Origin: a virus | Direction: 5' to 3' (one strand) | DNA: 64,000 bases | IMG/VR virus record: IMGVR_UViG_3300034063_000636 | Span: 1 to 64,000 of that record | Part shown: piece by piece, positions 3,103 to 49,061 of the stretch | Position numbering within the stretch: position 1 is the stretch's first letter | How the letters are laid out: each line of letters starts with the position of its first letter | Translations under genes and position numbers: made by a program | The notes under the pieces: generated by a model | Databases searched by the model: none | Told to the model about the DNA's origin: nothing | Seen by the model: the letters and a program-made list of their open reading frames with translations, nothing else

Positions 3103-3112
3103 TAAGGAGCAA

Positions 3113-9792: not shown

Positions 9793-12297
9793 ATGAAGAA
9801 ATTTCTAGCAATATTGGGAATTGTGATGTCACAAATTTCCTATGCAGAACCATTAGAAGAAGTCACTATCACAAGCATTCGTGATTCAGCAGCAGCCGCT
9901 GTTGAGCAGCAAAAGAATGCTGATGGCGTAACTAATGTTGTCGCTGGTGATACAGTAGGCAAACTTCCAGATTCAAATATCGCCGAAGCACTACAACGTG
10001 TTTCAGGTATTTCAATTCAACGCGATCAAGGCGAAGGTCGTTATATCAATGTTCGTGGTGCTCCAAGTGAGTTCACAAACATCACAGTCAATGGCGTAAG
10101 TCTACCTGCTCCTGATCCATTTACAAGAGCAATTGACCTTGACGTTGTTCCTGCTAACATTGCTGACACACTAGAAATCAGCAAGACATTGCTTCCAAGT
10201 CAAGAAGCAGATAGCATTGCTGGCGCAGTCAATATTAAAACTAAATCAGCATTCAAGAAGCCAGGACTACAATTCAATGCTGAACTAGGTGGCTCTTATA
10301 ATCAGTTTGGTGGCACACATGATGTACGTGCATCATTCAGCCTATCAAATACAATGTTGAATGATACACTCGGTGTTTCTCTTTCAACAAGTTATGGTAA
10401 AACTGATCGCCAATTAGATAACATTGAAACAGCATGGGCACGTTATAGTGTTCCTGTTAATTTAGTTCCTGTTCCTGGCAATCCATTCAGCATACCACCT
10501 ATTTTGTTGGAATCTGTATTCGCTCCAGTCGAAACATTGTTCAAAGACTATGACACAGTTCGTGAAAGAATTGCTGTGACTGGCAATGTTGAGTATCGTC
10601 CAAACGATGATACCAGTGTTTATGTCAACTCAACATGGTCACGCTATGTTGATGACGAATGGCGCAATCGTTTGAGCATTCTTTACAGCGAAGGTAAGAT
10701 CGTTGCTGGTGCTACAGATAGCAAAGCAAGTTTCACATCACCTCGTATTGAAAAGCAAGTGCGTCATCGCATCATCGAAAATCATATCATTGCTAACGAA
10801 GTTGGTTTGAAGCAAAATTTAAGTGTTGGTAAACTTGACGCTAGTGTTTCAATGGCAACAGCAAAGCAAGATTATCCACAACGCGATGAGTTATTATTCC
10901 GCAGTTCATTGCGTCCAACAATCAGTTACGATTATAGCAAGAATCCAAACGAGCCATACATTAGTTTGTTTGATACAAAAGAACATCTAAACGTTGGTGC
11001 GTATGCTTTCCGTGAAAACACATATCGTGATGCTGATACAAATGAAGATACATTGGCAGCCAAAGTAGATTATGAAGTTGGCATGTATAAGTTTGGTGTG
11101 TTGTATGCTGATAGCGAAAGAACAACAGACGGTAGTCGTTGGAGAAATCGCAGTTCAACAGCGGCGCCAGCAACTAATCTTGCTGGATTCTTATCAACGA
11201 ATGTAAGCAAGAACTATGGTTATGATCTTGGCTTCAAGTTGAATACAGAATTAGCCGATGCTTATTATGGTGCTACAAAGGCACTATCACCACCAAGAGT
11301 AGAGCAATCATTGACAGAAGATTATAATGTTGATGAAAAGGTTGCTGCTGCTTATGGTATGATGAAGTATAAGGCAGATAAACTCAATGTGATTGCTGGC
11401 GTTCGTGTAGAAAATACAAAAGACGTTGGTAGCGCACCAGTTTATAATACTGTAACAGGTCGTATCACTAGCCAAGTTGGTGAAAAGGATTACACAAATG
11501 TATTCCCTAACCTAACAGTTCGCTATGACTATAATGACAATCTAGTTGGTCGTTTCGCATTGACTCGCTCACTCGCAAGACCAAACTTTGATGACATTGT
11601 TCCAAGAGCAATTGAAAGTCAAGAAGGAACACAACTAGTTGTTACAACTGGCAATCCTGACTTGAATCCAACACTATCAAACAATGTTGATATGTCAGTT
11701 GAATATTATTTCGGTGATATTGGTCTAGCCAGCGTAAGTGTGTTCTACAAAGACCTCAAAGACTATAACTACGTCTTGAGAACAAATGGAACATACATTG
11801 GCAGTCAAGCAATCCTAGTGCGCCCAGAAAACGCACCAAAGGGCGAAATTACTGGTGTTGAAGTAAGTTATCAACAGCAACTTGATAATGGTCTGGGTGT
11901 ATTTGCGAACTACACAATCGCTGACGCAAGCATTGATGTGGGTCGTAACTACGCTGGTCGTAGCAAGTTCCCACTTCCAGGACAAAGTGATTACACTGGT
12001 AACATTGCTGTGTTCTACGAAAGGGGTAAGATTAGCGCAAGACTTTCATACACGGATCGTGGTGAGTTCTTGAACGAAATCAATGCTGACGATGGCGCAC
12101 TTGATCTATACTGGGACGGTCGCGGTCAGTTAGACTTCACTGGTGGTTACAAAGTCAACAAGCAAACTGAACTTGTAATTGAAGCCAAGAATCTAACTAA
12201 CAGTGCTGGCGTTCGTTACTATGGATCCAAGTCTCGTGTCTATGAATATGAGAAGTTTGGATACAGCATCTATCTGGGTGCGAAATATAAAATGTGA
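9793..12297 (+). CDS. TonB-dependent outer-membrane receptor
   Basis: signal peptide; TonB box LEEVTITS; plug (LPDSNIAEALQRVSG..GEGRYINVRG..GAVNI); barrel (GNPDL.P, AKNLTN); aromatic C-terminal beta strand. Confidence 0.93.
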   Translation: MKKFLAILGIVMSQISYAEPLEEVTITSIRDSAAAAVEQQKNADGVTNVVAGDTVGKLPDSNIAEALQRVSGISIQRDQGEGRYINVRGAPSEFTNITVNGVSLPAPDPFTRAIDLDVVPANIADTLEISKTLLPSQEADSIAGAVNIKTKSAFKKPGLQFNAELGGSYNQFGGTHDVRASFSLSNTMLNDTLGVSLSTSYGKTDRQLDNIETAWARYSVPVNLVPVPGNPFSIPPILLESVFAPVETLFKDYDTVRERIAVTGNVEYRPNDDTSVYVNSTWSRYVDDEWRNRLSILYSEGKIVAGATDSKASFTSPRIEKQVRHRIIENHIIANEVGLKQNLSVGKLDASVSMATAKQDYPQRDELLFRSSLRPTISYDYSKNPNEPYISLFDTKEHLNVGAYAFRENTYRDADTNEDTLAAKVDYEVGMYKFGVLYADSERTTDGSRWRNRSSTAAPATNLAGFLSTNVSKNYGYDLGFKLNTELADAYYGATKALSPPRVEQSLTEDYNVDEKVAAAYGMMKYKADKLNVIAGVRVENTKDVGSAPVYNTVTGRITSQVGEKDYTNVFPNLTVRYDYNDNLVGRFALTRSLARPNFDDIVPRAIESQEGTQLVVTTGNPDLNPTLSNNVDMSVEYYFGDIGLASVSVFYKDLKDYNYVLRTNGTYIGSQAILVRPENAPKGEITGVEVSYQQQLDNGLGVFANYTIADASIDVGRNYAGRSKFPLPGQSDYTGNIAVFYERGKISARLSYTDRGEFLNEINADDGALDLYWDGRGQLDFTGGYKVNKQTELVIEAKNLTNSAGVRYYGSKSRVYEYEKFGYSIYLGAKYKM

Positions 12298-17898: not shown

Positions 17899-17974
17899 GC
17901 CGCTGTAGCACAACTGGTAGTGCACCTGATTTGTAATCAGGGGGTTGTAGGTTCGAGTCCTATCGGCGGCACCA
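17899..17974 (+). tRNA. tRNA-Thr(UGU)
   Basis: cloverleaf, anticodon TGT, GGTTCGAGTCC, encoded CCA. Confidence 0.95.
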
Positions 17975-17975
17975 T

Positions 17976-18050
17976 GGACCCATCGTCTAACGGTCAGGAC
18001 ACAGCCCTTTCACGGCTGGAATAGGGATTCGAATTCCCTTGGGTTCACCA
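17976..18050 (+). tRNA. tRNA-Glu(UUC)
   Basis: CAGCC-CT-TTC-AC-GGCTG; TTCGAAT; CCA. Confidence 0.93.
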
Positions 18051-18071
18051 AATTTTTGTTATGAGATTTTT

Positions 18072-18145
18072 GGGACTGAAACATTAAAGTGATGTAACGG
18101 ACTTTTAATCCGTAAAAGAGGGAGCGTTACCCTCCAGTCCTACCA
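18072..18145 (+). tRNA. tRNA-Lys(UUU), non-canonical T-loop
   Basis: GGGACTG/CAGTCCT acceptor; ACGGA-CT-TTT-AA-TCCGT; T-loop AGCGTTA; CCA. Confidence 0.85.
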
Positions 18146-18161
18146 AATTGTGAAACGGTTT

Positions 18162-18236
18162 TGGCGAGTAGCACAGCGGCAGTGCAAATGACTGTTAATC
18201 ATTAGGTCGTTGGTTCGATCCCAACCTCGCCAGCCA
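18162..18236 (+). tRNA. tRNA-Asn(GUU)
   Basis: AATGA-CT-GTT-AA-TCATT; GGTTCGATCC; G73-CCA. Confidence 0.95.
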
Positions 18237-18238
18237 TC

Positions 18239-18390
18239 TTGGTGCTTGCAGGGAATTCACTGTGAGTCATCCGTCGGTGCAAAGACTTTTCCGTTTGAAT
18301 AGCACCAACGATATATGAGAGCGAACGGAATGCATTCTATGTTGCGTGGGGGCATAGATAAGAACGAACCTTAAATGGTAGCCCACGCCA
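18239..18390 (+). ncRNA. candidate pseudoknotted ncRNA between tRNA-Asn and tRNA-Ala
   Basis: stems TTGGTGCT/AGCACCAA, TTCCGTTT/GAACGGAA, CTATGT/GCATAG, GCGTGGG/CCCACGC. Confidence 0.4.
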
Positions 18391-18395
18391 TTTTT

Positions 18396-18470
18396 GGGGG
18401 ATTAGTGCTAATGGGAACACGCTGCGTTTGCATCGCAGAGTTGAGAGTTCGATTCTCTCATCCTCCACCA
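18396..18470 (+). tRNA. tRNA-Ala(UGC)
   Basis: G3:U70; CTGCG-TT-TGC-AT-CGCAG; CCA. Confidence 0.95.
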
Positions 18471-18473
18471 AAA

Positions 18474-18650
18474 CGTTCCGTCTAATCAGCGGATAGTCTA
18501 CCCAGATGATGAGAAACGGTGTGATAGCCGTAGGGTGGTTCCAGTCTAACCGAACTGGCGCTGGCAATGCGAGAATCCTCTTTGGTCGGGATGCGGATAC
18601 CACATAAGTGTTTGTGGTGGGATGACAAAAACCGCCGCAAAGAGGAAGCA
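18474..18650 (+). ncRNA. candidate structured ncRNA between tRNA-Ala and tRNA-Gln
   Basis: GC-rich; hairpins TCCG/CGGA, ACGGT/GCCGT, CCAGT/ACTGG; long stem TCCTCTTTG/CAAAGAGGA with nested GCGG/CCGC and ACCACA/TGTGGT. Confidence 0.5.
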
Positions 18651-18664
18651 ACTAATTTAGGATC

Positions 18665-18740
18665 GCTGGATGTGGCGAGCAGTAATGTGTCGCCTTCATC
18701 GGATGCCCAGAACGAGCAAACCCAGTTGTCTCATCCAGCA
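18665..18740 (+). ncRNA. tRNA-sized multi-stem element lacking tRNA consensus loops
   Basis: 76 nt; GCTGGATG/CATCCAGC-A closing stem, GGCGA/TCGCC and GAGCAA/TTGTCTC arms. Confidence 0.4.
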
Positions 18741-18748
18741 CTTTTTAT

Positions 18749-18822
18749 TGAGGAGTCGTCTAACGGCAGGACAGCAGGTTTTGATCCTGCTTATCGTGGT
18801 TCGAATCCATGCTCCTCAGCCA
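18749..18822 (+). tRNA. tRNA-Gln(UUG)
   Basis: U1:A72; GCAGG-TT-TTG-AT-CCTGC; CCA. Confidence 0.95.
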
Positions 18823-18826
18823 TATT

Positions 18827-18912
18827 GGGTGAACGGCGAAGTTGGAGAGTCGCGTCGGACTGTAAATCCGCTGCCATTGGCTGAGTAGGTTCGAATCCTA
18901 CTTCACCCACCA
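18827..18912 (+). tRNA. tRNA-Tyr(GUA)
   Basis: CT-GTA-AA loop, long variable arm, CCA. Confidence 0.93.
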
Positions 18913-18916
18913 TTTT

Positions 18917-18991
18917 GTTGCGGTGGCAGAAAAGTTATGCAAGAGTCTGCAAAACTCTTTTATGCTGGTGCGATTCCAGTCCGCAACTCCA
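18917..18991 (+). tRNA. tRNA-Cys(GCA)
   Basis: AGAGT-CT-GCA-AA-ACTCT; U73; T-loop TGCGATT; CCA. Confidence 0.9.
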
Positions 18992-18997
18992 GTTTAT

Positions 18998-19072
18998 GCG
19001 CGATTAACTCAGTGGTAGAGTAGCGCCTTTACACGGCGAATGTCGGGAGTTCGACCCTCTCATCGCGCACCA
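18998..19072 (+). tRNA. tRNA-Val(UAC)
   Basis: CGCC-TT-TAC-AC-GGCG; CCA. Confidence 0.95.
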
Positions 19073-19085
19073 GTTTGGAGTGATT

Positions 19086-19313
19086 ATGAAAAAATATATT
19101 CATGTCAATCAACATATAATTAGATCAAATAAAAAGAACAATGAGAATAATCCTGTGCTTACCATCAAGGAAGGCAGGAAGAACACTTATTGTCATCGTG
19201 TGAAGATTCACGGACCAAGTGAAGTTGTATACTCAGGAAATGAGAAATTACTTCTTCCTTGTGGTGCAAGAGTTGCTGTAGTTACAGAAAGCGAAATTGA
19301 AATTGTAGAATAA
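19086..19313 (+). CDS. conserved phage hypothetical protein
   Basis: IHVNQH.I..N.K...PV.T.K...GPS...CGARV; SD GGAG. Confidence 0.75.
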   Translation: MKKYIHVNQHIIRSNKKNNENNPVLTIKEGRKNTYCHRVKIHGPSEVVYSGNEKLLLPCGARVAVVTESEIEIVE

Positions 19314-19323
19314 ATAAGAGAAT

Positions 19324-19581
19324 ATGAATATGTTAAATCAATTACTTGAATATCTAAGTCCAAAAGTTGTTCGCAATACAACTCCTGATAGACTTGTGGA
19401 AAATCGACCGCAAGTTCTCAAGCCTACGCATGAAATTTATAAGGACACCAAGAAAGAGTGGCGGTGGCGTATCACTGCACGCAATGGTGATATTATTGCT
19501 GCCTCTTGCGAAGGATATAAGAATAAAGTTGACGCCGAGAAGAATTTAAGGTATATTACTAATCTAAGAATCGGACAGTAG
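19324..19581 (+). CDS. YegP/DUF1508 family protein
   Basis: EIYKD...EWRWR..A.NG.IIA.S.EGY.NK..A. Confidence 0.8.
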
Positions 19582-19648
19582 CACAGCCTGGTAGTGCATC
19601 TGCTTTGGGAGCAGAGGGTCGGAGGTTCGAATCCTCTCTGTCCGACCA
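19572..19648 (+). tRNA. tRNA-Pro(UGG)
   Basis: C1:G72; TCTGC-TT-TGG-GA-GCAGA; CCA. Confidence 0.95.
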
Positions 19649-19664
19649 ATTTTTGGAGATTGTT

Positions 19665-20234
19665 ATGGCAAATCATGTGAATACTTCGGTTCGGTTTGAG
19701 AAACTCAACGATGCTGGTAAAGCAAAGTTGCAAGAACTTTATTCTCGCATTCAACGAGAAGATAAAGGCTATGAATGGTTCAGTGATATTTTTGGTATTG
19801 ATCGTGAAACCAGCAATCTCTATGAGTGGAACGTAGAAAACGTTGGTCCGAAGTGGTGTTACTTCGAAGATCGCGGTGAAGATTATTTCAATACAGTTTC
19901 TGCTTGGAGTTTTCCACAAACAGGATTAGAATGGCTCTTTGAGCAGATTGCTTCTGTTGATCCTGACTTCATTGCCTCTGTGATGTATGAAGACGAAATG
20001 CCAAACTTCTTTGGTGTTTATGTCTACAATAAAGATGGTATCATTGATGGATGCGAGTGGGGCGAAGATGATGAAATCACCGAGATGATGCATGAAATGG
20101 TCCCATCACTTCGTGAATTAGATCAAGAAGAACAGAGCGATGTATATTTTGGTATTTGGTCAGATCATATTTGGGATCTTGTTCATGACAAACAAGATCA
20201 GGTATACAATGACATTATGGAGTCGTTGAAATAA
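19665..20234 (+). CDS. YubB/DUF1281 ferredoxin-like domain protein
   Basis: YEWN.EN.G.KW...F.SAWS.P...YEDE..NF.G; SD GGAG. Confidence 0.65.
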
Positions 20235-20239
20235 TTTTC

Positions 20240-20324
20240 GCGACTGTGGTGGAATCGGTATACACATGACACTTAAAATGTCACGGCGTTAGCCATGTCG
20301 GTTCAAGTCCGACCAGTCGCACCA
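20240..20324 (+). tRNA. tRNA-Leu(UAA)
   Basis: TGACA-CT-TAA-AA-TGTCA, long variable arm, CCA. Confidence 0.95.
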
Positions 20325-20325
20325 T

Positions 20326-20399
20326 GCGGGATTAGTTTAATGGTAAAACAGCAGATTTCCAATCTTCGGTCGAGAGTTCGATTCTCTCATCCCGCTCCA
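20326..20399 (+). tRNA. tRNA-Gly(UCC)
   Basis: GCGGGAT/ATCCCGC, U73, anticodon TCC, CCA. Confidence 0.93.
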
Positions 20400-20403
20400 T
20401 TTT

Positions 20404-20479
20404 GCGCTCGTAGTTCAGCGGATAGAACAACAGCCTTCTAAGCTGTGGGTCGCAGGTTCGATTCCTGCCGAGCGTGCCA
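20404..20479 (+). tRNA. tRNA-Arg(UCU)
   Basis: ACAGC-CT-TCT-AA-GCTGT; CCA. Confidence 0.95.
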
Positions 20480-20484
20480 CTATT

Positions 20485-20802
20485 ATGAGTCAAACAAAAC
20501 AATTAAAATTTGAAGATCTTCAACCGCATGTAGATATGCTGTGTGATGCTTTAGAAAACAAAGGAGCATCCTCTAGTGGAATTCCAAATCTAGAGGTGTA
20601 TCCATTTGCTGACAAATACAGATATATACTTGCTCAGGTGCGTGCAAAAGAATATACATTTGATGGATTGCTTTGTGATCTTTCTGCACTTCGAGTTCAA
20701 ACACTTGATGCAGCAATGAATAATCAGTACCATAGAGTTGGTAAAATTGTCGAAGCACTTGACATTTTCATATTAAAAGAATATAATAAGTGCATGAATT
20801 AG
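20485..20802 (+). CDS. hypothetical protein
   Basis: 105-aa ORF between tRNAs. Confidence 0.65.
   Translation: MSQTKQLKFEDLQPHVDMLCDALENKGASSSGIPNLEVYPFADKYRYILAQVRAKEYTFDGLLCDLSALRVQTLDAAMNNQYHRVGKIVEALDIFILKEYNKCMN
20759..20787 (+). promoter_or_regulatory. perfect-consensus sigma70 promoter
   Basis: TTGACA-17-TATAAT, 14 nt before tRNA-Ser. Confidence 0.85.
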
Positions 20803-20891
20803 GAAGGGTGGCAGAGCGGTTGAATGCATCAGTCTTGAAAACTGACGTCTCTTTACGGGGACCGTGAGTTCGAATCTCACCCCTTCCGCCA
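20802..20891 (+). tRNA. tRNA-Ser(UGA)
   Basis: TCAGT-CT-TGA-AA-ACTGA, long variable arm, G73-CCA. Confidence 0.95.
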
Positions 20892-20906
20892 AAATTTGAA
20901 ATCAAT

Positions 20907-20990
20907 GCCCATATGGTGGAATTGGTAGACACGATGGTCTTAGAAGCCATTGCCGAAAGCGTGGGGGTTCGAGTCCCTCTATGGGCACCA
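20907..20990 (+). tRNA. tRNA-Leu(UAG)
   Basis: ATGGT-CT-TAG-AA-GCCAT, variable arm, CCA. Confidence 0.95.
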
Positions 20991-21004
20991 GTTTGGAGAA
21001 GATT

Positions 21005-21847
21005 ATGAGTTACACAATTGGAATTATCGGCAAAGGATTTGTCGGTGGCGCAATGTATGAAAACTTTAAAGATGTTTTCAATACACTTGTTTGGGATACT
21101 GATGAGTCGAAACGTAACGTTGCAACATTTAAAGAGTTTGTTGAACAGTCTGAGATTATTTTTGTTTGTGTTCCAACACCAAGCCGACAAGATGGTTCTT
21201 GCGATACTAGTATTGTTGGATCAGTCTTAGACGATATTGCTCAAGTCGATCGTCGCAAATATGTTGTAATTAAATCCACAGTAACTCCTGGAACAACATC
21301 GCGTTACGCATCCGATTTCAACATGACAATTGGATTCAATCCTGAATTTCTCACAGAAGTCAATGCACACAATGACTTTCGAAATCAACGGTTGATTGTT
21401 ATTGGTGCAGATGATTCTGGTCTTGCTACTGTAATGACTCAATTATACTATGAGTTCAATTCAGCAGTCGACAATCATGCTCATGTGATTCAACGTACAA
21501 CGAAAGAAGCCGAGTTGTTCAAGTATCTTGCAAATAGTTTCTTGGCAACGAAAGTTATTTTCGCAAATGAGTTTAAAATTCTTTGCGATAAAGTCGACGT
21601 TGATTATGGTCGTATTGCAGAACTGGCTGTTCTTGATAAACGATTAGGACATACGCACTGGCGTGTTCCTGGTCCAGACGGACAATACGGATTCGGTGGA
21701 AGTTGCTTTCCGAAAGACACATCTGCACTATTATCATATGCTGACGAAGTGGGAACCGCACTGTGGATGCTCACTGAAGCAACTTATATCAACGAAGATC
21801 TTCGTGGTGAAAAGTTTATGAAACTCGAATTGGTCGAAGATAAATAA
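21005..21847 (+). CDS. UDP-glucose/GDP-mannose 6-dehydrogenase family (short form lacking the C-terminal domain)
   Basis: GKGFVG, CVPTP, IKSTV.PG, NPEFL, AELFKY..N.FLA.K..FANE, GFGGSCFPKD. Confidence 0.88.
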   Translation: MSYTIGIIGKGFVGGAMYENFKDVFNTLVWDTDESKRNVATFKEFVEQSEIIFVCVPTPSRQDGSCDTSIVGSVLDDIAQVDRRKYVVIKSTVTPGTTSRYASDFNMTIGFNPEFLTEVNAHNDFRNQRLIVIGADDSGLATVMTQLYYEFNSAVDNHAHVIQRTTKEAELFKYLANSFLATKVIFANEFKILCDKVDVDYGRIAELAVLDKRLGHTHWRVPGPDGQYGFGGSCFPKDTSALLSYADEVGTALWMLTEATYINEDLRGEKFMKLELVEDK

Positions 21848-21853
21848 TACATT

Positions 21854-22426
21854 ATGAGTTTAGTATTAGTTGTAGACAAAGGTGGAATGCCCAAAGACTG
21901 GGTGAACTTTGAAATGGCAGCGTGTTACTATGCCAAGAATAAAGTTCTCTGGGAATTGGGTGAAAAGATGAAAACCATGCTCGGTGGTCACAATCAGCAT
22001 GGTGAACAGTCGCGCATCGATATCTCTTGCATCATTGGTGTGAGTGGTCCATTACTAGGCGACAAATTCTATAATCAGCAAACTGTATTCGCCGATCGTA
22101 TGACATTATATGCTCGCGATTGGCACATCTGTGCTTATTGTGGAGATGAATTTAGCACTAGTCAATTGACAATTGATCACGTTCAGCCAAAGTCTCGTGG
22201 TGGCACGAATCAGTGGACAAATTGCGTCACTGCTTGTCGTCCATGTAACCATAAAAAGGGATGGAAGACGCCAGAAGAAGCAAAGATGCATCTTCTATAC
22301 GTTCCTTATGCTCCAACTGTACATGAGAGAATCTTACTAAAGAATCGTAAAGTTCTCGCTGATCAAATGGAATTTCTGAAAGCGAGCATTCCTAAACATA
22401 GTAGAGTATGGAGAAATATGATATGA
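21854..22426 (+). CDS. HNH endonuclease (McrA-like)
   Basis: RD...CAYCG...TIDHV.P.SRGG...W.N.V.AC..CN..K. Confidence 0.9.
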   Translation: MSLVLVVDKGGMPKDWVNFEMAACYYAKNKVLWELGEKMKTMLGGHNQHGEQSRIDISCIIGVSGPLLGDKFYNQQTVFADRMTLYARDWHICAYCGDEFSTSQLTIDHVQPKSRGGTNQWTNCVTACRPCNHKKGWKTPEEAKMHLLYVPYAPTVHERILLKNRKVLADQMEFLKASIPKHSRVWRNMI

Positions 22427-22575
22427 GCACTGGCGGAAAGGGAAGCAAGCCACGCCCATTGAGTGTTCCGAGAAAAAAGTTCGATGAAAATTGGGACAGA
22501 ATCTTTAAGAAGGGGAACAATGCGAAAACTAGATCTTCACGGAGTTCGTCATCGCGAAGTGGATCTATTGGTTGA
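22423..22575 (+). CDS. small conserved phage protein; not in ORF track
   Basis: MSTGGKGSKPRP...FDENWDRIF motif; SD GGAG. Confidence 0.65.
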   Translation: MSTGGKGSKPRPLSVPRKKFDENWDRIFKKGNNAKTRSSRSSSSRSGSIG

Positions 22576-22732
22576 GAATTATATTTTTGAACATCAACGA
22601 GACTTTCCAGTCGAAATAATTTGCGGAAATAGTTCTAGGATGATGTCATTGGTAATGAGAGTCTTAAAGAGACTCGATTGTGAGATTGATAAAAGTTTGT
22701 ATGGAATTATAATTGTTAGAAAATTTAAATAA
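22520..22732 (+). CDS. stand-alone Smr domain protein
   Basis: LDLHG.....V......I....P.EIICGNS..M...V; SD AGGGG. Confidence 0.75.
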   Translation: MRKLDLHGVRHREVDLLVENYIFEHQRDFPVEIICGNSSRMMSLVMRVLKRLDCEIDKSLYGIIIVRKFK

Positions 22733-22733
22733 T

Positions 22734-22809
22734 TGCGGGGTAGACTAGCGGTCAAGTCACTGGACTCATAATCCAGTTTCCGTAGGTTCGAATCCTACCC
22801 CCGCTACCA
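22734..22809 (+). tRNA. tRNA-Met(CAU), initiator-like
   Basis: CT-CAT-AA loop; 1:72 mismatch (U:U); A11:U24; CCA. Confidence 0.88.
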
Positions 22810-32062: not shown

Positions 32063-32221
32063 ATGTCTGAAGTGAAACAATATCCATGCGCATGCGGACG
32101 CAGTCCGACTGGCTATTGCATTGGTTTGCATGCAATGACATCTGAGCAATACAAGAAGTATCTTGAAGAGCAACAGAAATCATTGAATGAACAGACAAAG
32201 CCACAGTTTCTAGTTGATTAA
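32063..32221 (+). CDS. small CDGSH-like Fe-S/Zn-binding protein; not in ORF track
   Basis: SD GGGAG; MSEVKQYP-CACGRSPTGYCIGLH-...; 52 aa. Confidence 0.65.
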   Translation: MSEVKQYPCACGRSPTGYCIGLHAMTSEQYKKYLEEQQKSLNEQTKPQFLVD

Positions 32222-32530
32222 TGGTTGTAAACTGACAATTAAAGGTGTTCTGGACTCGGGTTCGACCCCCGACATCTCCACCAAATGCCCATCACCTCTG
32301 CATTAATGTACGTGGTGGCTATCTTATGGGGATGAATTTGGCTTCGACAGGGCAAGTAATAACCTGACAGCAACCAGTGAGGCGACTGACTTAATCAGCG
32401 CAAACAAAGTAAACGCAAACGACGATTACTTCGAAATGGCTCTCGCTGCTTAATTGCAGTATGAGATTACCAGAGTTGACCGCTTGGTAACAGAAAGGTC
32501 TGGGTTGGTGGTGCGAACCACCAACCTTTT
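32221..32530 (+). ncRNA. ssrA: circularly permuted (two-piece) tmRNA
   Basis: acceptor piece with T-arm and CATCTCC-A-CCA ends at 32283; 5' GGGGATG begins at 32328 (G3:U70); tag GCA AAC GAC GAT TAC TTC GAA ATG GCT CTC GCT GCT TAA (32415-32453) = ANDDYFEMALAA. Confidence 0.9.
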
Positions 32531-35125: not shown

Positions 35126-36025
35126 ATGAGTCTAGCAAATCTAAAGAACAAGAGTTCTTCTCTTGATAAGTTGAAGAAGGCAGTTGAGCAATCCTCTGCT
35201 GGTAACGGTGGTGGCAAGAACGTTGATGAGCGTTTTTGGCAACCAGAAGTTGACGCTGCTGGCAACGGATACGCAGTTATCCGTTTCCTCGATACGCCAG
35301 CCGTTGACGGTGAAGATGGTCTACCGTGGGTACAAATCTGGTCACACGGTTTCCAAGGTCCAGGTGGTTGGTACATTGAGAATTCTCTCACTACACTTGG
35401 CAAGACCGATCCTGTTTCTGAGTACAACACTGTTCTGTGGAACTCAGGTATCGAAGCAAACAAAGAAATTGCTCGCAAACAAAAGCGCAAGTTGACGTAC
35501 ATTGCAAACGTTCTTGTGATCTCTGACGCCAAGCGTCCGCAAAATGAAGGCAAGGTTTTCTTGTTCAAGTTCGGAAAGAAAATTTTCGACAAGATCAAGG
35601 AGCAACTTGAGCCGCAGTTTGCTGATGAGACTCCAATGAATCCGTTTGACTTCTGGAAGGGTGCGAACTTCAAGGTCAAGATTCGTAACGTCGAAGGCTA
35701 TCGCAACTATGACAAGTCGGAGTTTGAGGCTCCTGCTGCATTGTTGAATGGTGATGATGCGAAGATTGAGCAGGTTTGGAAGTCTGCATATTCACTCAAG
35801 GATTTCCTGAAGCCTGAAAACTTCAAGACCTATGATGAACTTAAAGCGAAGTTGGACAAGGTTCTTGGTGCTGGTGGCGTGTCTGGCGCAACCGCCAAGC
35901 GAGTTGATGATGAGGAAGCAGCCGCTCCTGTCATTCGCTCTGCTCCAGCCAAGAAAGTAACTGCTGAAGAAGTCAGCGTCGATGATGACGATATGGCATT
36001 CTTCGAGAAACTTGCTGCTGAGTAA
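35126..36025 (+). CDS. gp32: single-stranded DNA-binding protein
   Basis: DERFW.P..D..GNG.AVIRFL, WYIEN..TT.G..DPV, FGKKI, GANF..K, NYD.S.F, acidic tail. Confidence 0.96.
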   Translation: MSLANLKNKSSSLDKLKKAVEQSSAGNGGGKNVDERFWQPEVDAAGNGYAVIRFLDTPAVDGEDGLPWVQIWSHGFQGPGGWYIENSLTTLGKTDPVSEYNTVLWNSGIEANKEIARKQKRKLTYIANVLVISDAKRPQNEGKVFLFKFGKKIFDKIKEQLEPQFADETPMNPFDFWKGANFKVKIRNVEGYRNYDKSEFEAPAALLNGDDAKIEQVWKSAYSLKDFLKPENFKTYDELKAKLDKVLGAGGVSGATAKRVDDEEAAAPVIRSAPAKKVTAEEVSVDDDDMAFFEKLAAE

Positions 36026-36053: not shown

Positions 36054-36078
36054 AGGGGGACTTCGGTCCCCTTTTTTT
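36054..36078 (+). terminator. intrinsic terminator (cUUCGg) between convergent genes
   Basis: GGGGGAC-TTCG-GTCCCCTTTTTTT. Confidence 0.85.
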
Positions 36079-37429
36079 ATCTTCCATAACCAATGTATTG
36101 TGGGTGATTAGAGTCTGCACCAGCAAGACGATTGAAAGTATTTTCGTTACTGAATACTCTTTCAGTTTTTGCGTCTGCTGCCTTTGCAGTGATTGTTCTA
36201 TTGTTATTGATTACAATTGGTGCTGACGATTTCTTTTCTTCTGTTGAACTCTTATAATCATCAAGCATTTCTGAGAAAGCATCTAAATCGTCTTTCTCTT
36301 TCTTAGCATTTAAAATTTGTTGTGTGTCAGATGTAATTGGGTTCATCGAAGATTCATCTAAATCTGCTGCAGATGATTCTTCGAGCGATGCATCATATTC
36401 ATTTTCTCGCATCTTGACTTGTTTTAAAATTTCTCCTGCATTATCTCCGCCATAAAAGTCAGCATACAATCGTTTAAATCTTTCCCATGGGTTATTACTT
36501 TCCTCTTCTTCATTTTTTTCTTTCATATCACTAACATCTTTATACACTTTTTTACAATATGATTCTTCTTCTCGTTTCCCACTTACTAAGATATCTTCTA
36601 TATCTTCTTCGTCAGTCAATCCCTCAACATCAATGCTTTCAATTTCTTCAGAAAGATCATCGATATTTTCGTCTTGGGTTTTTCCAATTACAGTAATATC
36701 CTCAATCTCATCATAGATGTCATCTAGAGTATCATCTTGCGTCTTACCAATGACTTTTATTTCTTCAATCTCATCATATATGTTATCTAACGTTTCATTG
36801 AATTTGTCATTAATGTATGATGGTGTAGGTTGCTCTGTGTCATCAGTCGGTGTTTGAACAAAATCTTGTTCTACTAATGAATCTATAATTGGTTGAACAA
36901 ATGGTTCAACTTGTGTTTGTTCTAGAACTGGTTCTTCCTGCGCACTATTTGGCTGAATGTTTTGCAGAAAGTCCCACGTACCATCATTGAAATTGAAATC
37001 TAAACCTTCCAATCCAGCTAATGTTCCAGTGTCTGTTGTTGACAATGCAGCTGCAGCATTTTGCATTGTTGGATCTTGTGCACCAGAATTAAAGGTTTTT
37101 CTCATTGCCTCTTGAATGTCCTCTAAATTAGAGAACGATTGAGGCATTTGACTCGGGTCAAATTGAATGTCTTGTTTTGAATATGTTGGTTCTTCAGCCT
37201 TCTCTGGCATCTCACCCAACCTTTCGTCGATTGCAGATGAAATCATATCGTTGATCATCTTTGTGTCTGTACCAACCGCATCTTTCATCATTTGAGATGC
37301 ATCAGGCTTAAACATGTCAACTAGATCAGCTGATGCAAACGTTCCGCCACCAAATCGTTTGGCAAATCCGTTTTTTAACTGATCACCTTTTTTTGCAAAA
37401 GGAGACATAAATTCTGATCGATCAATCAT
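36077..37429 (-). CDS. acidic baseplate-hub/tape-measure (gp29-position) protein with internal 21-aa repeats
   Basis: lies downstream of gp26/gp51; APIVINNN C-terminal motif; function from synteny only. Confidence 0.55.
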   Translation of the reverse strand: MIDRSEFMSPFAKKGDQLKNGFAKRFGGGTFASADLVDMFKPDASQMMKDAVGTDTKMINDMISSAIDERLGEMPEKAEEPTYSKQDIQFDPSQMPQSFSNLEDIQEAMRKTFNSGAQDPTMQNAAAALSTTDTGTLAGLEGLDFNFNDGTWDFLQNIQPNSAQEEPVLEQTQVEPFVQPIIDSLVEQDFVQTPTDDTEQPTPSYINDKFNETLDNIYDEIEEIKVIGKTQDDTLDDIYDEIEDITVIGKTQDENIDDLSEEIESIDVEGLTDEEDIEDILVSGKREEESYCKKVYKDVSDMKEKNEEEESNNPWERFKRLYADFYGGDNAGEILKQVKMRENEYDASLEESSAADLDESSMNPITSDTQQILNAKKEKDDLDAFSEMLDDYKSSTEEKKSSAPIVINNNRTITAKAADAKTERVFSNENTFNRLAGADSNHPQYIGYGR

Positions 37430-37587
37430 TTATTCTTTCTCTGTAATTGTCGTTCTCTTATCTTATCATTTTCTTCTTTCACATGTTGCGCCACTAATGC
37501 AACATATGTCGCTCTTTCCCACGGGAGCATATTTTCGAGTTCACTTAAACTATATCCATGATGCTGCATTAATGCAAAATTAGTCAT
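37426..37587 (-). CDS. gp51: baseplate hub assembly catalyst; not in ORF track; frame open upstream to the gp26 slippery site
   Basis: YYMTNFALMQHHGYSLSELENMLPWER..YV.L...H.KEEN. Confidence 0.88.
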   Translation of the reverse strand: MTNFALMQHHGYSLSELENMLPWERATYVALVAQHVKEENDKIRERQLQRKNK

Positions 37588-37619
37588 ATAATATGTTTTC
37601 AAACTCTCATTACGAAGGC

Positions 37620-38342
37620 TTATACGAAAAAATCGAGGAGACCCTCCAGTTTGATGGTATGGTTTCTATCACACTTACCACAAACTAATTCATTCTTATA
37701 TCTTAACATTGGCATCTCTAAGAAAAAGTTTTTAATTTTCTTGAATTGCTCAGTGGTTAAATTGTTTATGAATTCATCAAACTCGCCTTGTTGCATCTCA
37801 TTAATATTATACACCTGATTCTCATCGTAAAGATACTCAGTACATTGCTTGATAATTTCTGTTGGAGCATCTTTTGTGTTGAGTTTCTCAACTAATACTT
37901 TAGAGATTTCTATTGTCGGATATCTCAATTTAATTCCAACATTGCTTGTTAACGGAACCAAACTGTTTGAGGGTTTATGTTCATATGCAACTTTAAGTAA
38001 GTCAATATCAAGCTGCATCTTTCCTTTACACTTCTTATTCTTATCCACAATATTTTCACAAACGTATTCTAATGAAACAATTTCTCCAATTGATCTTGCT
38101 CGTAGATTCAAGAACAAATATTCAATCTCATATAATGGTAAAGACTCAACATCTATCTGATCAACAACACAATTGTTGACAATTTGTTTAATTGCATCAA
38201 GACTTGTCTCATAATCTCTGGACTCTAAAGCCATCAAAAGAATTTTTTCTTCTTTGACAACAAAAGGGCGAAAGGTTATGTCTTTGCCTAGAGATTCTAG
38301 TTTAAGTTTAAATGTTGGTAAATCAATTTTTGGTATAGCCAT
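37620..38342 (-). CDS. gp26: baseplate hub assembly chaperone
   Basis: FRPF.VKEEK.LL.A.E, D/EIEY.FL.LR..S.GE, KLRYP, F...MP.L, LEGL.DFF. Confidence 0.9.
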   Translation of the reverse strand: MAIPKIDLPTFKLKLESLGKDITFRPFVVKEEKILLMALESRDYETSLDAIKQIVNNCVVDQIDVESLPLYEIEYLFLNLRARSIGEIVSLEYVCENIVDKNKKCKGKMQLDIDLLKVAYEHKPSNSLVPLTSNVGIKLRYPTIEISKVLVEKLNTKDAPTEIIKQCTEYLYDENQVYNINEMQQGEFDEFINNLTTEQFKKIKNFFLEMPMLRYKNELVCGKCDRNHTIKLEGLLDFFV

Positions 38343-38356
38343 AAATCACTCCATAG

Positions 38357-39145
38357 TTATCGTGGGTCGACGTTTCTTCTTCCTCGACCCACCACATCAA
38401 TGCTCGTCAAGACTTCTCTGTCACTTGTTGTTCCTCTGACATCAATATCTGTCAAAACCTCATTTCCATCACCAGTTCTTCCAACAACATCGATACCAGT
38501 AAGAACTTCTCTGTCTGCTGCTCTTCCAACGACCTCAATATCTTCAAGGACTTCTGGTGCCTCGTTATCATTTCGTTCATATCGGTCTGCATTGAAACTT
38601 CTCCAGTAACGATATGAGAAGTTGACATCTATTCTTACTGCTTCTTGCTCAGCCCATGATCCCTTTACTTCACTCACAGCAATCGGAAATACTTCATATA
38701 ATCTCACTCCATATGAAATCCTATTTCCATCTTCGGAGATTTGATACACATCAATTTCTCCGATGTAATCATCTCTATATCTAAAGTCGAATTTATTTTC
38801 TTTTGGATTGATATAATTCAACCAAGCATCAAAGAAGGTTTTTTGACGCATATCATCATCAACTAAGAATGTGGTTGAGACATCTTTATACTCAGAACGA
38901 ACTGGGATGTTCATTTTTGGTCCACCCAAGTAAAGATCGTTTGTGAGTATCTCATATCCTGGAATCAAAACAGACTCAGCATAGTATGTGAGATAATTAT
39001 CTTTATTTTTATAATTCAGAATGTTGACTAGTTCTGTTGGTGGCTTGATTACAATGGCAATCTTATTGAGTCGTGAAAATCCGCTCTTTCGAACCTCTGA
39101 GAGAAAGTTGTTGATGTTTAGTGTTTTTCTTGGATTGAGCGCCAT
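38357..39145 (-). CDS. gp54: baseplate tail-tube initiator (gp54/gp19-like) with C-terminal repeat extension
   Basis: ES..IPG, TF.VD.D...K.FFD.W...I, Y.DDY...I...Q, L.E.FP..V, V.FSYRYW. Confidence 0.75.
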   Translation of the reverse strand: MALNPRKTLNINNFLSEVRKSGFSRLNKIAIVIKPPTELVNILNYKNKDNYLTYYAESVLIPGYEILTNDLYLGGPKMNIPVRSEYKDVSTTFLVDDDMRQKTFFDAWLNYINPKENKFDFRYRDDYIGEIDVYQISEDGNRISYGVRLYEVFPIAVSEVKGSWAEQEAVRIDVNFSYRYWRSFNADRYERNDNEAPEVLEDIEVVGRAADREVLTGIDVVGRTGDGNEVLTDIDVRGTTSDREVLTSIDVVGRGRRNVDPR

Positions 39146-39696
39146 TAACCAAAACTCCTCATTCGTTCAACTGGAAGAAATACTGCAGTCTCCCAGAAGT
39201 TTGGTTCTACATATATCAGTGGTGAAACTAGTTGATCATAAAGATATCTTCTATAGCAACTTCGAACAGCACCAGAGAATTGGCTCATGTTGGATAGGAG
39301 ATCATAGGACAATAAAAATCTTGTAGAATCGTCATATTTATCGTTGTTTAAGAACATCGACAATCCATCCAGAATACTCATTCTTTCTCCTGGACCTAGA
39401 AAGTGTAGATTGATGCCAGCGAACCCATCACCATCTACAACCATTGGAAGAACTAGAGGAAATTCATCCCATTGCGAGAGTCTTTCTTTTGTGAGTGGAT
39501 CATATCGAAAGAAGAACATTCTTCCAACTGCAGCGAATGCAGTAACTCGCTTTGCATCGTTCAGAATATTAGATCTATTGGATGGAATTGAGGCTTTGGC
39601 TACCATGCCTTGTATGAACTTTTTGGCTTCTTCAGTTCTTGGCTTGATCCCTTTCTTTGCCATTCCCTTTTCAATTTTTTCGAGTAGTGCTCCCAT
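39145..39696 (-). CDS. gp2: DNA end protector protein
   Basis: GRMFFF.YDP..K..L..WD.FPLV, GINLH.L, C.R.YL, W..A.FLP. Confidence 0.9.
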   Translation of the reverse strand: MGALLEKIEKGMAKKGIKPRTEEAKKFIQGMVAKASIPSNRSNILNDAKRVTAFAAVGRMFFFRYDPLTKERLSQWDEFPLVLPMVVDGDGFAGINLHFLGPGERMSILDGLSMFLNNDKYDDSTRFLLSYDLLSNMSQFSGAVRSCYRRYLYDQLVSPLIYVEPNFWETAVFLPVERMRSFG

Positions 39697-40130
39697 CAGA
39701 TTCCTAATTCATCCTCTGTGATTAGACTAAATCTCCATTTTCTATCCATACAGTATTCATTTGCTGCCTTCCACTTTGCTTCGTTCACACCCCAAGTTGC
39801 AACTTCTTGGATGTATTGCTTTGTGATACGACTCTTTGGTTTAGGAGGAGATGCTTGACTCTTTGGCTTAACTTCTAGAATCATACTTTCTTCTAGACCA
39901 TTTCTATTCTTAACTTTCACGAAAAAGTCTGGAAAGTACCGATGCCATCTTCCATCTACTGGGGATAAATAAGGAATAACGATCTCTTCGTTCGACCATC
40001 CGATTACACTTGGATTTTCATCCAGATGCACCATGACTCGGCGTTCCCATAACGATCGATACCAAATGTTCGTATGGTCACCTAAATATTTACTGATGTT
40101 TTTCGGACTGTATTTGCCGCTGTATGCCAT
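39696..40130 (-). CDS. gp4: head completion nuclease
   Basis: Y.GKY.P.N..KY.GD, YRSLWE, W.NEE..IPY, HRYFPDF, EVKP, N.AKW.AA..YC. Confidence 0.92.
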   Translation of the reverse strand: MAYSGKYSPKNISKYLGDHTNIWYRSLWERRVMVHLDENPSVIGWSNEEIVIPYLSPVDGRWHRYFPDFFVKVKNRNGLEESMILEVKPKSQASPPKPKSRITKQYIQEVATWGVNEAKWKAANEYCMDRKWRFSLITEDELGI

Positions 40131-40134
40131 CAAT

Positions 40135-40142
40135 TATTTATA
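40135..40142 (-). promoter_or_regulatory. T4-type late promoter for the gp4 operon
   Basis: TATAAATA on the minus strand, 4 nt before the gp4 ATG. Confidence 0.7.
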
Positions 40143-40152
40143 GGAAATCTCA

Positions 40153-41352
40153 ATGACCGAAGTATTAGAGAACATCGACGTCATAGGTCGACGACCTGGA
40201 GTCGATCGAAGAGGCGATGAAGTCTTGACAGATATTAATGTCATTGGAAGAACTCCTGGTTCTGCTCCGCGAGATGCAGAACTTTTAGAAGGCATCGATG
40301 TAATTGGAAGATCTAGATCAAAATCTGAACCAAAGCATTTAAGATATCCACTTAATATGACTGATCCGAGTGGTGGTTTTAAGAATGCAGTTCGTTTCGT
40401 TGCATATGCACAGCGCAGATCGTTCCTAGATGACCCAAATGAAACACCATCTTTTAAAAATCCGCCAGATCAATTTGATCCTGGAAGACCAAGAAAGTTT
40501 CCTGTAACTCAAGGTGCGTTTAATACTTCTTTTTTGTTTAGAAGTTCACTAGTTCAATCTTCTAAATTTAATATCGGTACAGTTACAGAAGATTTGATTG
40601 GAATTGGAGCAAATGGAATCGAATTTTTTACTGGTGGTCGCGACATTTCCTATGGACAAAGAACAGTTGAATTAGACAGTTCAATCACTTTGTATATGCC
40701 TGATACAGTAATCAATCAAGACAAACATGATTATCAATCAATTTCTATTAATCAGGCTTCAGGTAGAGCAGGACTATATTCCGCAGGATTTCCTGCTGCT
40801 TTAGGTGGACTTGGATCTGCTTTAGGAAGAACAGAAGTATTTGCAGAGCTGGCTGGAAGAGCAGGAATATTTGGGACACGATCAACTGAAGCGATTCTAT
40901 CAGGACTCGGTTATGCATTAAATCCGATGCTTGAAATGACATACGGTGGAACGCAACCAAGATCCTTCTTGTTCCAATTTAGATTTGCTCCAAGAAATTT
41001 AAAAGAAGCAGAAGAAGTTAAGAAAATCATTAAGACCTTCAGATTCCATTCACACTCTGAGAATGCTGGTGGACAGGGCACAGCTGCAGAAGGTAGCGGA
41101 ACTCGATATTTGGTTCCACCAAATCATTTCGAAATTCAGTTCCTTCGTAGAGATAGCACAGGAAAATTTGTAGAAAATTTAGCGATGCCTAGAGTTACGA
41201 CATGCATGATAGCCTCGATCAACACAAACTATGCAGCGCAGTTAGATACCTTTGCAACACACCAAGACGGCACTCCAGTTTCTATAAGCCTTGATCTTGA
41301 ATTTATAGAAAGCGTCGTTCTCACTAAAAACGATATTAAGAACGGTTACTAA
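40153..41352 (+). CDS. gp48: baseplate tail-tube cap with N-terminal repeat extension
   Basis: LRYP, I.LYMP, NP..E..Y.G...RSF.F.F.F.PRN..EA..V..II..FR, P..F.I.F, L.F.E...LTK. Confidence 0.85.
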   Translation: MTEVLENIDVIGRRPGVDRRGDEVLTDINVIGRTPGSAPRDAELLEGIDVIGRSRSKSEPKHLRYPLNMTDPSGGFKNAVRFVAYAQRRSFLDDPNETPSFKNPPDQFDPGRPRKFPVTQGAFNTSFLFRSSLVQSSKFNIGTVTEDLIGIGANGIEFFTGGRDISYGQRTVELDSSITLYMPDTVINQDKHDYQSISINQASGRAGLYSAGFPAALGGLGSALGRTEVFAELAGRAGIFGTRSTEAILSGLGYALNPMLEMTYGGTQPRSFLFQFRFAPRNLKEAEEVKKIIKTFRFHSHSENAGGQGTAAEGSGTRYLVPPNHFEIQFLRRDSTGKFVENLAMPRVTTCMIASINTNYAAQLDTFATHQDGTPVSISLDLEFIESVVLTKNDIKNGY

Positions 41353-46985: not shown

Positions 46986-49061
46986 ATGGCAAATGTCGAA
47001 AGTAAACTCGTTATTTCAGAACCAGATTTCTTTACAATAAAGGCGAGTCTCAAGAACTTTTTGAAGTCTCAGAGTACGTTTGCAGATTACGACTTTGAGG
47101 GATCAACTTTATCTCAATTGATCGATCTATTGTCATATAATACTCATTACCTATCATTCTATATGAATATGATTGCAAATGAGTCGTTTTTAGATACCGC
47201 CGCACTGAGAGACTCTGTTGTTTCTCATGCGAAGATGTTAGGATACACTCCTTCTTCCATTCGCAGTGCTCAAGCAAAAATCGATTTAAGTTTCACATTG
47301 GCAAATAATCCTGGAGTTGGATCCATCACTTCGCTAACTCTTCCGAAGTTCACACGATTTGCATCATCAGCAATTGATGGCGTCAATTATATCTTCACAA
47401 ATTTAGATGAAGTCACTGTAACTAAATCAAATAATGCATTTACCTTTGCAGATCTAGAGATTTATGAAGGCAATCCTGTTTCTCAGGTTTTTGTATACAA
47501 TGAGCTGATCAATCCTCTTCAAGAATTTAAACTTCTAGATCAAAACATTGACACGTCAACTCTTGAAGTGATTGTGCAAAATTCAAGTTTAGATTTAACA
47601 CAAGAAACATATACTCTTGCAACAGATTCAACAATCTTATCTCAAACAAGTAAAGTTTATTTCCTAGACGAAATCACTAATGGAAATTATAAGATTTATT
47701 TTGGAGATGATATTCTTGGAAAGAAACTTTCTGATGGAAATATCGTTATTGTTTCTTATGTCGTAAGTAAAGGCGCAGAAGCAAATAAAGCAAAAGGATT
47801 TAGATTGATGGATTCTGTTGGTGGCTTAACTGAAGGCACCATCGTCGTTGATCAAATTGCTTTGGGCGGTGCCGCTGCAGAGTCAATCGAGAAGATTAAA
47901 AATATCGCACCAAAATCATATGCCTCAAATGGCAGAGCGATAACTAAGAACGATTATATTGCATTGATTCAACAAAGATACCCTGCATTCGAATCAGTAA
48001 ACGTTTGGGGTGGTGAAGAAAATATTCCTCCAGTTTATGGTAAAGTGTTTGTTTCAGCTAAACCTGCAGCTGGATACGAAATTTCTAGAACAGAAAAAGA
48101 CTATATCATTAATACAGTTATTGATCCAATTAGTATTTTGACAGTGACGCCTGAGTTCGTTGATCCAGATTATAACTTCTTAAATTTAAATGTAAAAGTT
48201 ACATATGATCCGACTGCAACGACTTTAACTCCAGGCGAACTCTCAACTCTTGTTCGTGATAAAATTAATGGATATGCAAATACCTACTTGGATCAATTCA
48301 ATTCATACTTTAAGATCTCAAGATTAATGCATGAAATTGACATGGCACATCCATCAATTGTAAGTAATGATGTTGACGTTAAGATCGAAAAACGACTAAC
48401 ACCAATACTTGGTACATCTAGAAGTTACGTCATCAAATACTACACTGAATTAAAACGTTCAACAGGTGCTGATAGAATCAGTTCAAGCCCTGCATATACT
48501 GCATATGACAACGAAGGCATCTTGCGCGAATTCTACTTTGAAGAAGTTCCATTGTCTTCTACTGGTGTCTCTTCAGTTCAAGTTGTTCTTGGTGGTTCTG
48601 GATTAACAACCACGCCAAGACTTGACGTTATTGGTGATGGTATCGGTGCTGAACTTGAGGCTATTGTAACAAACGGAAAGATTACAGCAGTCAATGTTAA
48701 AAAGCCTGGTGCGGATTATACGACTGCAGCAATTAGAGCATATGATCAAGATAATAATTTATTGACAAATATTATCTTAAAACCAATCGTGGAAAACACG
48801 ACTGGCAGATTAAGATCTTACTATTTCGATAATAATAACATCAAAGTGATTTATTCTGATTCTGCAGGTGTGATCGACTATATTACTGGAACAATTACTC
48901 TTACGCAATTTAGCCCAATCGATGTTAGAGATAATTTTAAAATCTTGAAGTTCTATGCAACCCCAAAGAACACTCTGTTTAATTCTGCTCGAAATACAAT
49001 CATTACACTAGACATTGACAATCAATCTCAAGTTTCAATTGATATTGTTAAAGTAACCTAA
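46986..49061 (+). CDS. gp6: baseplate wedge subunit
   Basis: DF..IK..L..FL..Q..F.DYDFEGS, NESFLD.A..R.SV.S.AK.LGY.P, RA.T..DY, WGGEEN.PP.YG.V. Confidence 0.93.
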   Translation: MANVESKLVISEPDFFTIKASLKNFLKSQSTFADYDFEGSTLSQLIDLLSYNTHYLSFYMNMIANESFLDTAALRDSVVSHAKMLGYTPSSIRSAQAKIDLSFTLANNPGVGSITSLTLPKFTRFASSAIDGVNYIFTNLDEVTVTKSNNAFTFADLEIYEGNPVSQVFVYNELINPLQEFKLLDQNIDTSTLEVIVQNSSLDLTQETYTLATDSTILSQTSKVYFLDEITNGNYKIYFGDDILGKKLSDGNIVIVSYVVSKGAEANKAKGFRLMDSVGGLTEGTIVVDQIALGGAAAESIEKIKNIAPKSYASNGRAITKNDYIALIQQRYPAFESVNVWGGEENIPPVYGKVFVSAKPAAGYEISRTEKDYIINTVIDPISILTVTPEFVDPDYNFLNLNVKVTYDPTATTLTPGELSTLVRDKINGYANTYLDQFNSYFKISRLMHEIDMAHPSIVSNDVDVKIEKRLTPILGTSRSYVIKYYTELKRSTGADRISSSPAYTAYDNEGILREFYFEEVPLSSTGVSSVQVVLGGSGLTTTPRLDVIGDGIGAELEAIVTNGKITAVNVKKPGADYTTAAIRAYDQDNNLLTNIILKPIVENTTGRLRSYYFDNNNIKVIYSDSAGVIDYITGTITLTQFSPIDVRDNFKILKFYATPKNTLFNSARNTIITLDIDNQSQVSIDIVKVT

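Follow-up and report, generated by a model that had tools for sequence, protein, structure and literature searches.

The 64,000-nucleotide stretch analysed here (positions 1 to 64,000 of IMG/VR virus record IMGVR_UViG_3300034063_000636; below, the window) is part of a 108,214-base viral contig of a T4-like myophage, estimated to be 63% complete. Three of its genes, namely homologues of the tail-tube proteins gp48 and gp54 and an acidic protein at the position of the tape measure gp29, carry arrays of an 11-residue unit, E-V-L-x-x-I-D-V-x-G-R, that resembles the TonB box of TonB-dependent transporters. The unit is present three times at the gp48 N-terminus, four times at the gp54 C-terminus and, in a looser version, four times within the gp29-position protein, as an earlier note on this DNA had reported (3, 4 and about 4 copies). 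That note had called the three genes unrelated; the arrays do occur in all three, but gp48 and gp54 are both tube-fold proteins.

Arrays in three virion proteins

The gp48 homologue (baseplate tail tube cap or distal tube ring; 399 amino acids; 40153-41352, plus strand) matches PHROG 230 over the tube-cap body (6.6e-49 over residues 54-398) and Pfam family PF11091 at 20.3 bits (cut-off 20.2). A stop codon lies three codons ahead of the start, which is further fixed by an AGGAAA ribosome-binding site and a late-promoter-like box, TATTTATA; this T4-like box and AGGAAA lie at 40130-40152 (plus strand), and the divergent intergenic gap directly before the start is 19 bases long. The array (40159-40311, plus strand) begins at residue 3 and precedes a conserved KHLYYP motif. 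Its three units follow each other with a period of 20 amino acids and are separated by basic Pro/Gly linkers: EVLENIDVIGR (40159-40191; 9.4 bits), EVLTDINVIGR (40219-40251; 0.6 bits) and ELLEGIDVIGR (40279-40311; 3.7 bits), all scores being those of the TonB-box matrix described in the next section.

The gp54 homologue (tail tube initiator ring; 262 amino acids; 38357-39145, minus strand) matches PHROG 45 'tail tube' (1e-31 over residues 5-192) and, weakly, Pfam family PF23849. It lies directly downstream of the gp2 homologue (39145-39696, minus strand), an adjacency also present in Caulobacter phage Cr30. Its C-terminal array (38384-38554, minus strand; period 15-16 amino acids) consists of EVLEDIEVVGR (38522-38554; 8.9 bits), EVLTGIDVVGR (38477-38509; 1.7 bits), EVLTDIDVRGT (38429-38461; 4.6 bits) and EVLTSIDVVGR (38384-38416; 7.3 bits). 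AlphaFold2 (AF2) monomer models of gp48 and gp54 have a mean predicted local distance difference test score (pLDDT) of 48-50 and are used here only to say that the tails are not confidently folded. Both tails appear in them as low-confidence coil or short strands: gp48 residues 1-69 are coil (pLDDT 30-44), and gp54 residues 186-262 (pLDDT 30-43) have a short strand at every unit.

The third protein (450 amino acids; 36077-37429, minus strand) is placed at the gp29 position by synteny. It lies between the homologues of gp26 (37620-38342, minus strand) and gp32 (35126-36025, plus strand), adjoining the latter, and the order gp2-gp54-gp26-[open reading frame]-gp32 is shared with Cr30, in which the open reading frame in this slot is annotated as tape measure. 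The slot is thus the one that the earlier note had given, but homology to gp29 was not detected (hhalign against T4 gp29: probability 0.2%, no match). The protein belongs to no Pfam or PHROG family, had no match by tblastn against 50,697 phage records, and gave no usable match in the ESM Atlas; gene order is what makes it a candidate counterpart of gp29. Both ends are conserved in its family, as is an invariant NPWERFK motif, and in relatives the array is kept just upstream of NPWERFK. In the window the internal array (36575-36775, minus strand) comprises four looser units with acidic linkers: DEIEEIKVIGK (36743-36775; -2.8 bits), DEIEDITVIGK (36680-36712; 0.7 bits), EEIESIDVEGL (36617-36649; -4.7 bits) and EDIEDILVSGK (36575-36607; 4.5 bits). 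The net charge of the protein is -59 (family range -15 to -59). No hydrophobic segment was found in the family, the maximum 19-residue hydropathy being 0.46-0.72 in 8/8 members versus 2.20 in T4 gp29; if the protein is a tape measure, it would be one without the channel-forming helix described for T4 gp29. By eye, the C-terminal INNN...VF of the family is loosely like that of T4 gp29.

When all six frames of the whole contig were searched, all seven matches of the strict 11-mer pattern fell in gp48 and gp54, and all nine of the core [IVL]-x-V-x-G-[RK] within the gp48, gp54 and gp29-position open reading frames. The motif was not found in T4 (gp48, gp54, gp29), in Cr30 or in more distant T4-like relatives. 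IMG/VR relatives with a gp54 identity of 49-100% carry arrays of 2-5 copies at the corresponding sites of all three proteins. Of the 32 closest homologues of gp48 (52-99% identity), 30 have N-terminal arrays, and the N-terminus of the other two, P0026 and P0033, is short; gp48 homologues at 40% identity or less have none. The gp48 array has disappeared from one sub-lineage (L013-L016), in which only about 18 residues remain before KHLYFP and the arrays of gp54 and the gp29-position protein have been kept. This loss, and a copy number per protein of 0-5 across the metagenomic relatives, would not be expected of a fixed structural interface. The arrays are not covered by any Pfam or PHROG family (one unit was touched by a weak match to PHROG 15034, of unknown function); with the gp54 array as query, phmmer found among 1.84 billion representatives only one fragment of the same family and three spurious repeat proteins, and a tblastn search of a sister-lineage gp48 array (L104) against the 50,697 phage records returned no match.

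Within a phage, the units of the three proteins change together. All three carry I-D-V-x-G-R in the window's lineage (unit type EVLENIDVIGRR) and V-[VT]-V-[TSG]-G-T in a sister lineage (L103-105; unit type LEEVVVSGTR; LEEVVVSGT, LLGVTVTGT, LDEVVVSGT). Ser replaces Gly in both arrays that remain in L015/16, as VGIDIFSRR in gp54 and EGIDVQSSR at the gp29 position. Co-occurrence of the arrays across the three sets of homologues, a point raised in the earlier note, is thus borne out in the IMG/VR relatives, as is their co-variation. Where residues of different units are identical, their codons agree in only 37-45% of cases; the Ser of VVVSGT in L104, for example, is encoded by TCT in gp48 and by AGT in the gp29-position gene. 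Such scrambling of synonymous codons speaks against recent duplication or gene conversion as the source of the likeness between units and points to its maintenance by selection on the peptide. Concerted change in three proteins suggests either one shared partner or mutual pairing; most likely, selection holds all copies within a phage to one sequence type and the copies have one shared ligand.

Two array-less gp48 homologues (L018, 1700-2689, minus strand; L020, 3878-4912, minus strand) begin with MAIISIPTSIGGVSIPG, another short strand-like segment. Lineage-specific strand motifs seem to gather in the gp48 segment that precedes the conserved YP motif.

Likeness to TonB boxes

Segments upstream of the Plug domain were taken from 60 receptors of four proteobacterial genomes. 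A motif finder yielded 52 non-redundant boxes and a 10-column matrix with the consensus L-E-E-[VI]-V-V-T-[GA]-[ST]-R, under which the real boxes score 14.9-30.9 bits (median 23.9; 52 receptors). The phage itself encodes a TonB-dependent receptor with a signal peptide (9793-12297, plus strand), and both the gene and the box PLEEVTITSIR that had been ascribed to it proved real: Plug and barrel domains were identified with Pfam, the N-terminus matches TIGR01782 (TonB-Xanth-Caul type; 4.9e-32), and the box, LEEVTITSIR in matrix register, is top of the 40,219 phage 10-mers with 13.4 bits. It lies outside the training set and served as positive control. Units of the window's arrays take ranks 3, 4, 6, 12, 13, 16 and 25 among the same 10-mers. 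Rank 2 falls to LDEVTVTKSN in the gp6 homologue (46986-49061, plus strand; residue 142 of the stop-to-stop frame; 11.0 bits), a lone copy that is probably due to chance.

Units of sister lineages (LEEVVVSGTR, LDEVVVGGTR, LESVVVTGRR) score 18.8-25.2 bits, inside the range of real boxes, and are always the highest 10-mers of their locus. Six units of L104 score 19.9-25.2 bits; those of L106 reach 22.5 and 18.8 bits, and those of L007 and L010 reach 20.5 and 19.8 bits, respectively. Matches can run over all 10 positions, as between LDEVVVTGTR of a bacterial receptor and LDEVVVSGTR of a phage. As negative controls, the counterparts of the array proteins in T4, Cr30 and array-less relatives stay at or below 2.6 bits, with the one exception of a Gly/Ala-rich hydrophobic stretch of the Cr30 tape measure (8.3 bits). 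The family logo, built from 136 distinct units (E-x-L-E-[SGD]-I-D-V-x-G-[RTK]-R; positions 1, 4, 6 and 8 partly set by the search pattern, the remaining positions free), agrees with the TonB-box logo at most positions and differs from it mainly at position 5 (Asp versus Val) and position 7. In the BtuB-TonB structure the side chains at positions 5 and 7 are presumably directed away from TonB.

A second matrix, derived from 30 TolB N-termini, which add a strand to TolA, placed no array unit in the top 20, a control on which a TolA-box reading of the arrays was rejected. The NCBIfam receptor models, scanned against the array segments, matched the N-terminus of the phage receptor only, the motif being too short for profile libraries. 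A complex prediction for E. coli TonB residues 150-239 with gp48 residues 1-70, run without controls, gave a score of 0.01 and a mark of 0.32, which counts neither for nor against binding.

Boxes of TonB-dependent transporters in their LEEVVVTG/A-x-R form (TonB-Xanth-Caul, TIGR01782) and the phage units have the same order of Leu, acidic residue, I/V-x-V, small residue and basic residue. Sister-lineage units also resemble transporter boxes in score and in lying in a flexible segment near a protein end. Unlike the boxes, the arrays are tandem (2-5 copies) and sit on virion proteins without plug or barrel.

Placement in the tail and candidate ligands

In T4, an anchor loop made up of residues 7-32 of gp48 sits between the first sheath layer and gp53 and is released on baseplate expansion. 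After contraction the tube ends distally in the gp48 hexamer; the tape measure, exposed at that end, is held there by gp48, with ejection arrested, and forms a membrane channel via a hydrophobic segment (10.64898/2026.03.06.709160). The gp48 N-terminus lies outside the T4 tube and the tape measure inside it (10.64898/2026.03.06.709160). The T4 structures agree with the earlier note in placing gp48 and gp54 at the tube end that enters the periplasm; they also show the N-terminal loop of gp48 freed on contraction and the tape measure expelled at this end. By analogy, the gp48 and gp54 arrays and the gp29-position protein would all reach the periplasm. This placement cuts both ways, because the gp48 array fills the segment that is a structural anchor in T4. 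Array and anchor loop share the protein and the N-terminal segment that is freed when the baseplate expands; the loop differs in being a single structural insert with no repeat.

From these comparisons we infer that the arrays may be TonB-box mimics that bind the C-terminal domain of host TonB by beta-strand addition, a possibility to which we give somewhat less than an even chance. The arrays would then be short linear strand-forming motifs on the flexible tails of the gp48 and gp54 rings and in the disordered middle of the gp29-position protein, tucked away or loose in the virion. On sheath contraction the tube tip would cross the outer membrane, the spike would leave and the gp29-position protein would be expelled, so bringing dozens of motif copies into the periplasm. 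These could capture TonB, anchored in the inner membrane, by avidity; the tip and the expelled protein would thereby be tethered to the inner membrane, and a delivery step might be coupled to the proton-motive force. The wider proposal, that in this freshwater T4-like clade the tube tip and expelled tube-filler use multivalent TonB-box mimics to capture TonB-ExbBD, dock on the inner membrane and perhaps couple delivery to the proton-motive force, is put forward more tentatively; such a device is not known from any phage virion. The arrays may also stand in for the membrane-inserting helix that is missing from the protein at the tape measure position. Pulling, uncapping or powering of delivery by TonB/ExbBD, as the earlier note envisaged, is pure inference.

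Several observations weigh against TonB as the ligand. The TonB-box likeness that the earlier note had claimed holds for the high ranks under the bacterial matrix (and not the TolB matrix) and for the scores of sister-lineage units, but the window's own 11 units, at -4.7 to 9.4 bits, are under all 52 real boxes on a matrix that comes from only four genomes and one receptor style. These units have Asp where real boxes have Val, and the Thr is missing. No genes for TonB, ExbB or ExbD were found on the contig, and a full-text search of the literature found no TonB-box motif described on phage virion proteins. Finally, the N-terminus of T4 gp48 is a structural anchor inside the baseplate-sheath interface, which makes a virion-internal role plausible.

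Such a role, close to the alternative named in the earlier note, is the main rival. The units would pair, as added beta-strands, with a partner from the phage itself, such as gp53, gp25, the first layer of the sheath or a hub assembly factor, and anchor the tube end until contraction, and their likeness to TonB boxes would be convergence on a generic strand-addition peptide. It draws support from the T4 anchor loop, which is inserted at the junction of the gp53 platform with the first sheath layer until contraction frees it; the gp48 array occupies this very N-terminal segment, before KHLYYP. A shared phage partner would explain the concerted change as well. The absence of a gp48 array in L013-L016 and the variable copy number would be odd for a fixed interface, and the motif in the tape-measure-position protein, which by T4 analogy lies in the tube lumen, would be out of reach of the baseplate-sheath interface. 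Generic convergence, moreover, leaves unexplained the LDEVVVTGTR/LDEVVVSGTR matches and the failure of the TolB matrix to pick out the arrays, and on balance we consider docking within the virion rather unlikely.

Concerted change in three proteins would also follow naturally from self-pairing, in which the gp29-position units pair with those of gp48 and gp54 as a homotypic beta-zipper or plug that holds the protein, and with it the DNA, at the tube end until a trigger. This zipper would replace the helix-based contact of T4, where the tape measure is bound by the hexamer of gp48 and ejection stops after contraction; the gp29-position protein has no hydrophobic helix to make that contact and has an array instead. 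The topology of T4, with the gp48 N-terminus outside the tube and the tape measure inside, is against such pairing, and a zipper would have no reason to reach the whole of the TonB-box consensus, flanking acidic and Gly-Thr-Arg positions included, so that we regard it as improbable. At least equally improbable in our judgement is another envelope ligand met after penetration, be it a TolA-type domain, another periplasmic or inner-membrane-anchored protein, or peptidoglycan. T4 tail-tip parts contact the inner-membrane-anchored periplasmic proteins PpiD and DamX (PMC7600766, PMC11054660). The C-terminal domains of TolA and TonB both take strands, and the central Asp of the window's units recalls the central acidic residue of TolB N-termini; yet the arrays obtain no rank from the TolB-derived matrix, and the spacing from the I-x-V core to Gly fits TonB boxes and not TolB.

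TonB is the best-supported ligand because the match is to a specific consensus, is lineage-dependent and is sometimes complete. A host ligand, specifically TonB, is further favoured because the motif evolves in concert, and because its copy number is variable and dispensable on unstructured tails that would enter the periplasm.

The N1 domain of the filamentous phage protein g3p binds TolA domain III. In that system, too, a host protein of the TonB/TolA class, which spans the periplasm and is coupled to a motor, serves a phage virion protein as co-receptor; the g3p domain differs from a linear motif array in being folded, and the phage type and the host protein are different as well. Parasitism of the TonB box is already known from colicins; the phage arrays would place it on virion proteins, in a putative function. 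TonB boxes in unstructured N-termini drive the import of colicin M and klebicin C, even via a non-receptor channel, and the colicin M box, ETLTV, lies at residues 2-6 (PMC11658791). Group B colicins, pyocins and klebicin C are likewise foreign proteins whose unstructured terminus bears a TonB box, reaches the periplasm and engages TonB. These bacteriocins have one box each and are themselves imported, whereas here many boxes would be carried on a tube that is already through the membrane.

Little is understood of the way in which contractile phages span the periplasm and open a path through the inner membrane. DNA entry of T4 requires membrane potential, and we know of no clear device that couples the two. 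If TonB were the ligand, a testable link between the tail tip and an energy-transducing motor of the host would be at hand, TonB-box parasitism would extend from bacteriocins to viruses, and tonB, exbBD and TonB-box compatibility would be new determinants of host range and resistance. Even with a phage partner, the arrays are a clean natural case of a short linear motif evolving in concert in three virion proteins.

Host clues and other genes of the contig

The nearest relatives of the phage receptor, at 54-57% identity, come from metagenome-assembled genomes (MAGs) of freshwater Steroidobacteraceae, followed by Sphingomonas and Brevundimonas. A Plug domain search found about 33 receptors in each of two Steroidobacteraceae MAGs, with boxes such as LDEVVVTGTR. 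The MAGs of the nearest receptor relatives have a guanine-plus-cytosine content of 61-67%, versus 40% in the phage. A permuted two-piece transfer-messenger RNA (32169-32529, plus strand; tag ANDDYFEMALAA) has Rfam beta_tmRNA as its best match (137.9 bits, full length), and 400 genomes sampled from the class that holds the receptor's nearest relatives yielded no close copy of it. The closest homologues of gp32 are from pelagiphage and cyanophage; psbA was not found on the contig. Every candidate host group is Gram-negative.

The contig also encodes a B12-dependent class II ribonucleotide reductase (3032-5002, plus strand) and ThyX (2440-3102, plus strand); the phage receptor might import cobalamin for this reductase during infection.

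At the array locus, the gp4 homologue (39696-40133) lies on the minus strand, and gp48 is accompanied on the plus strand by gp53, gp27 and gp5. Elsewhere, a cluster of 15 transfer RNA genes (17899-22809, plus strand) is present, and an NAD-dependent sugar epimerase/dehydratase of the GDP-mannose 4,6-dehydratase family (7049-7987, plus strand) lies amid early and metabolic genes.

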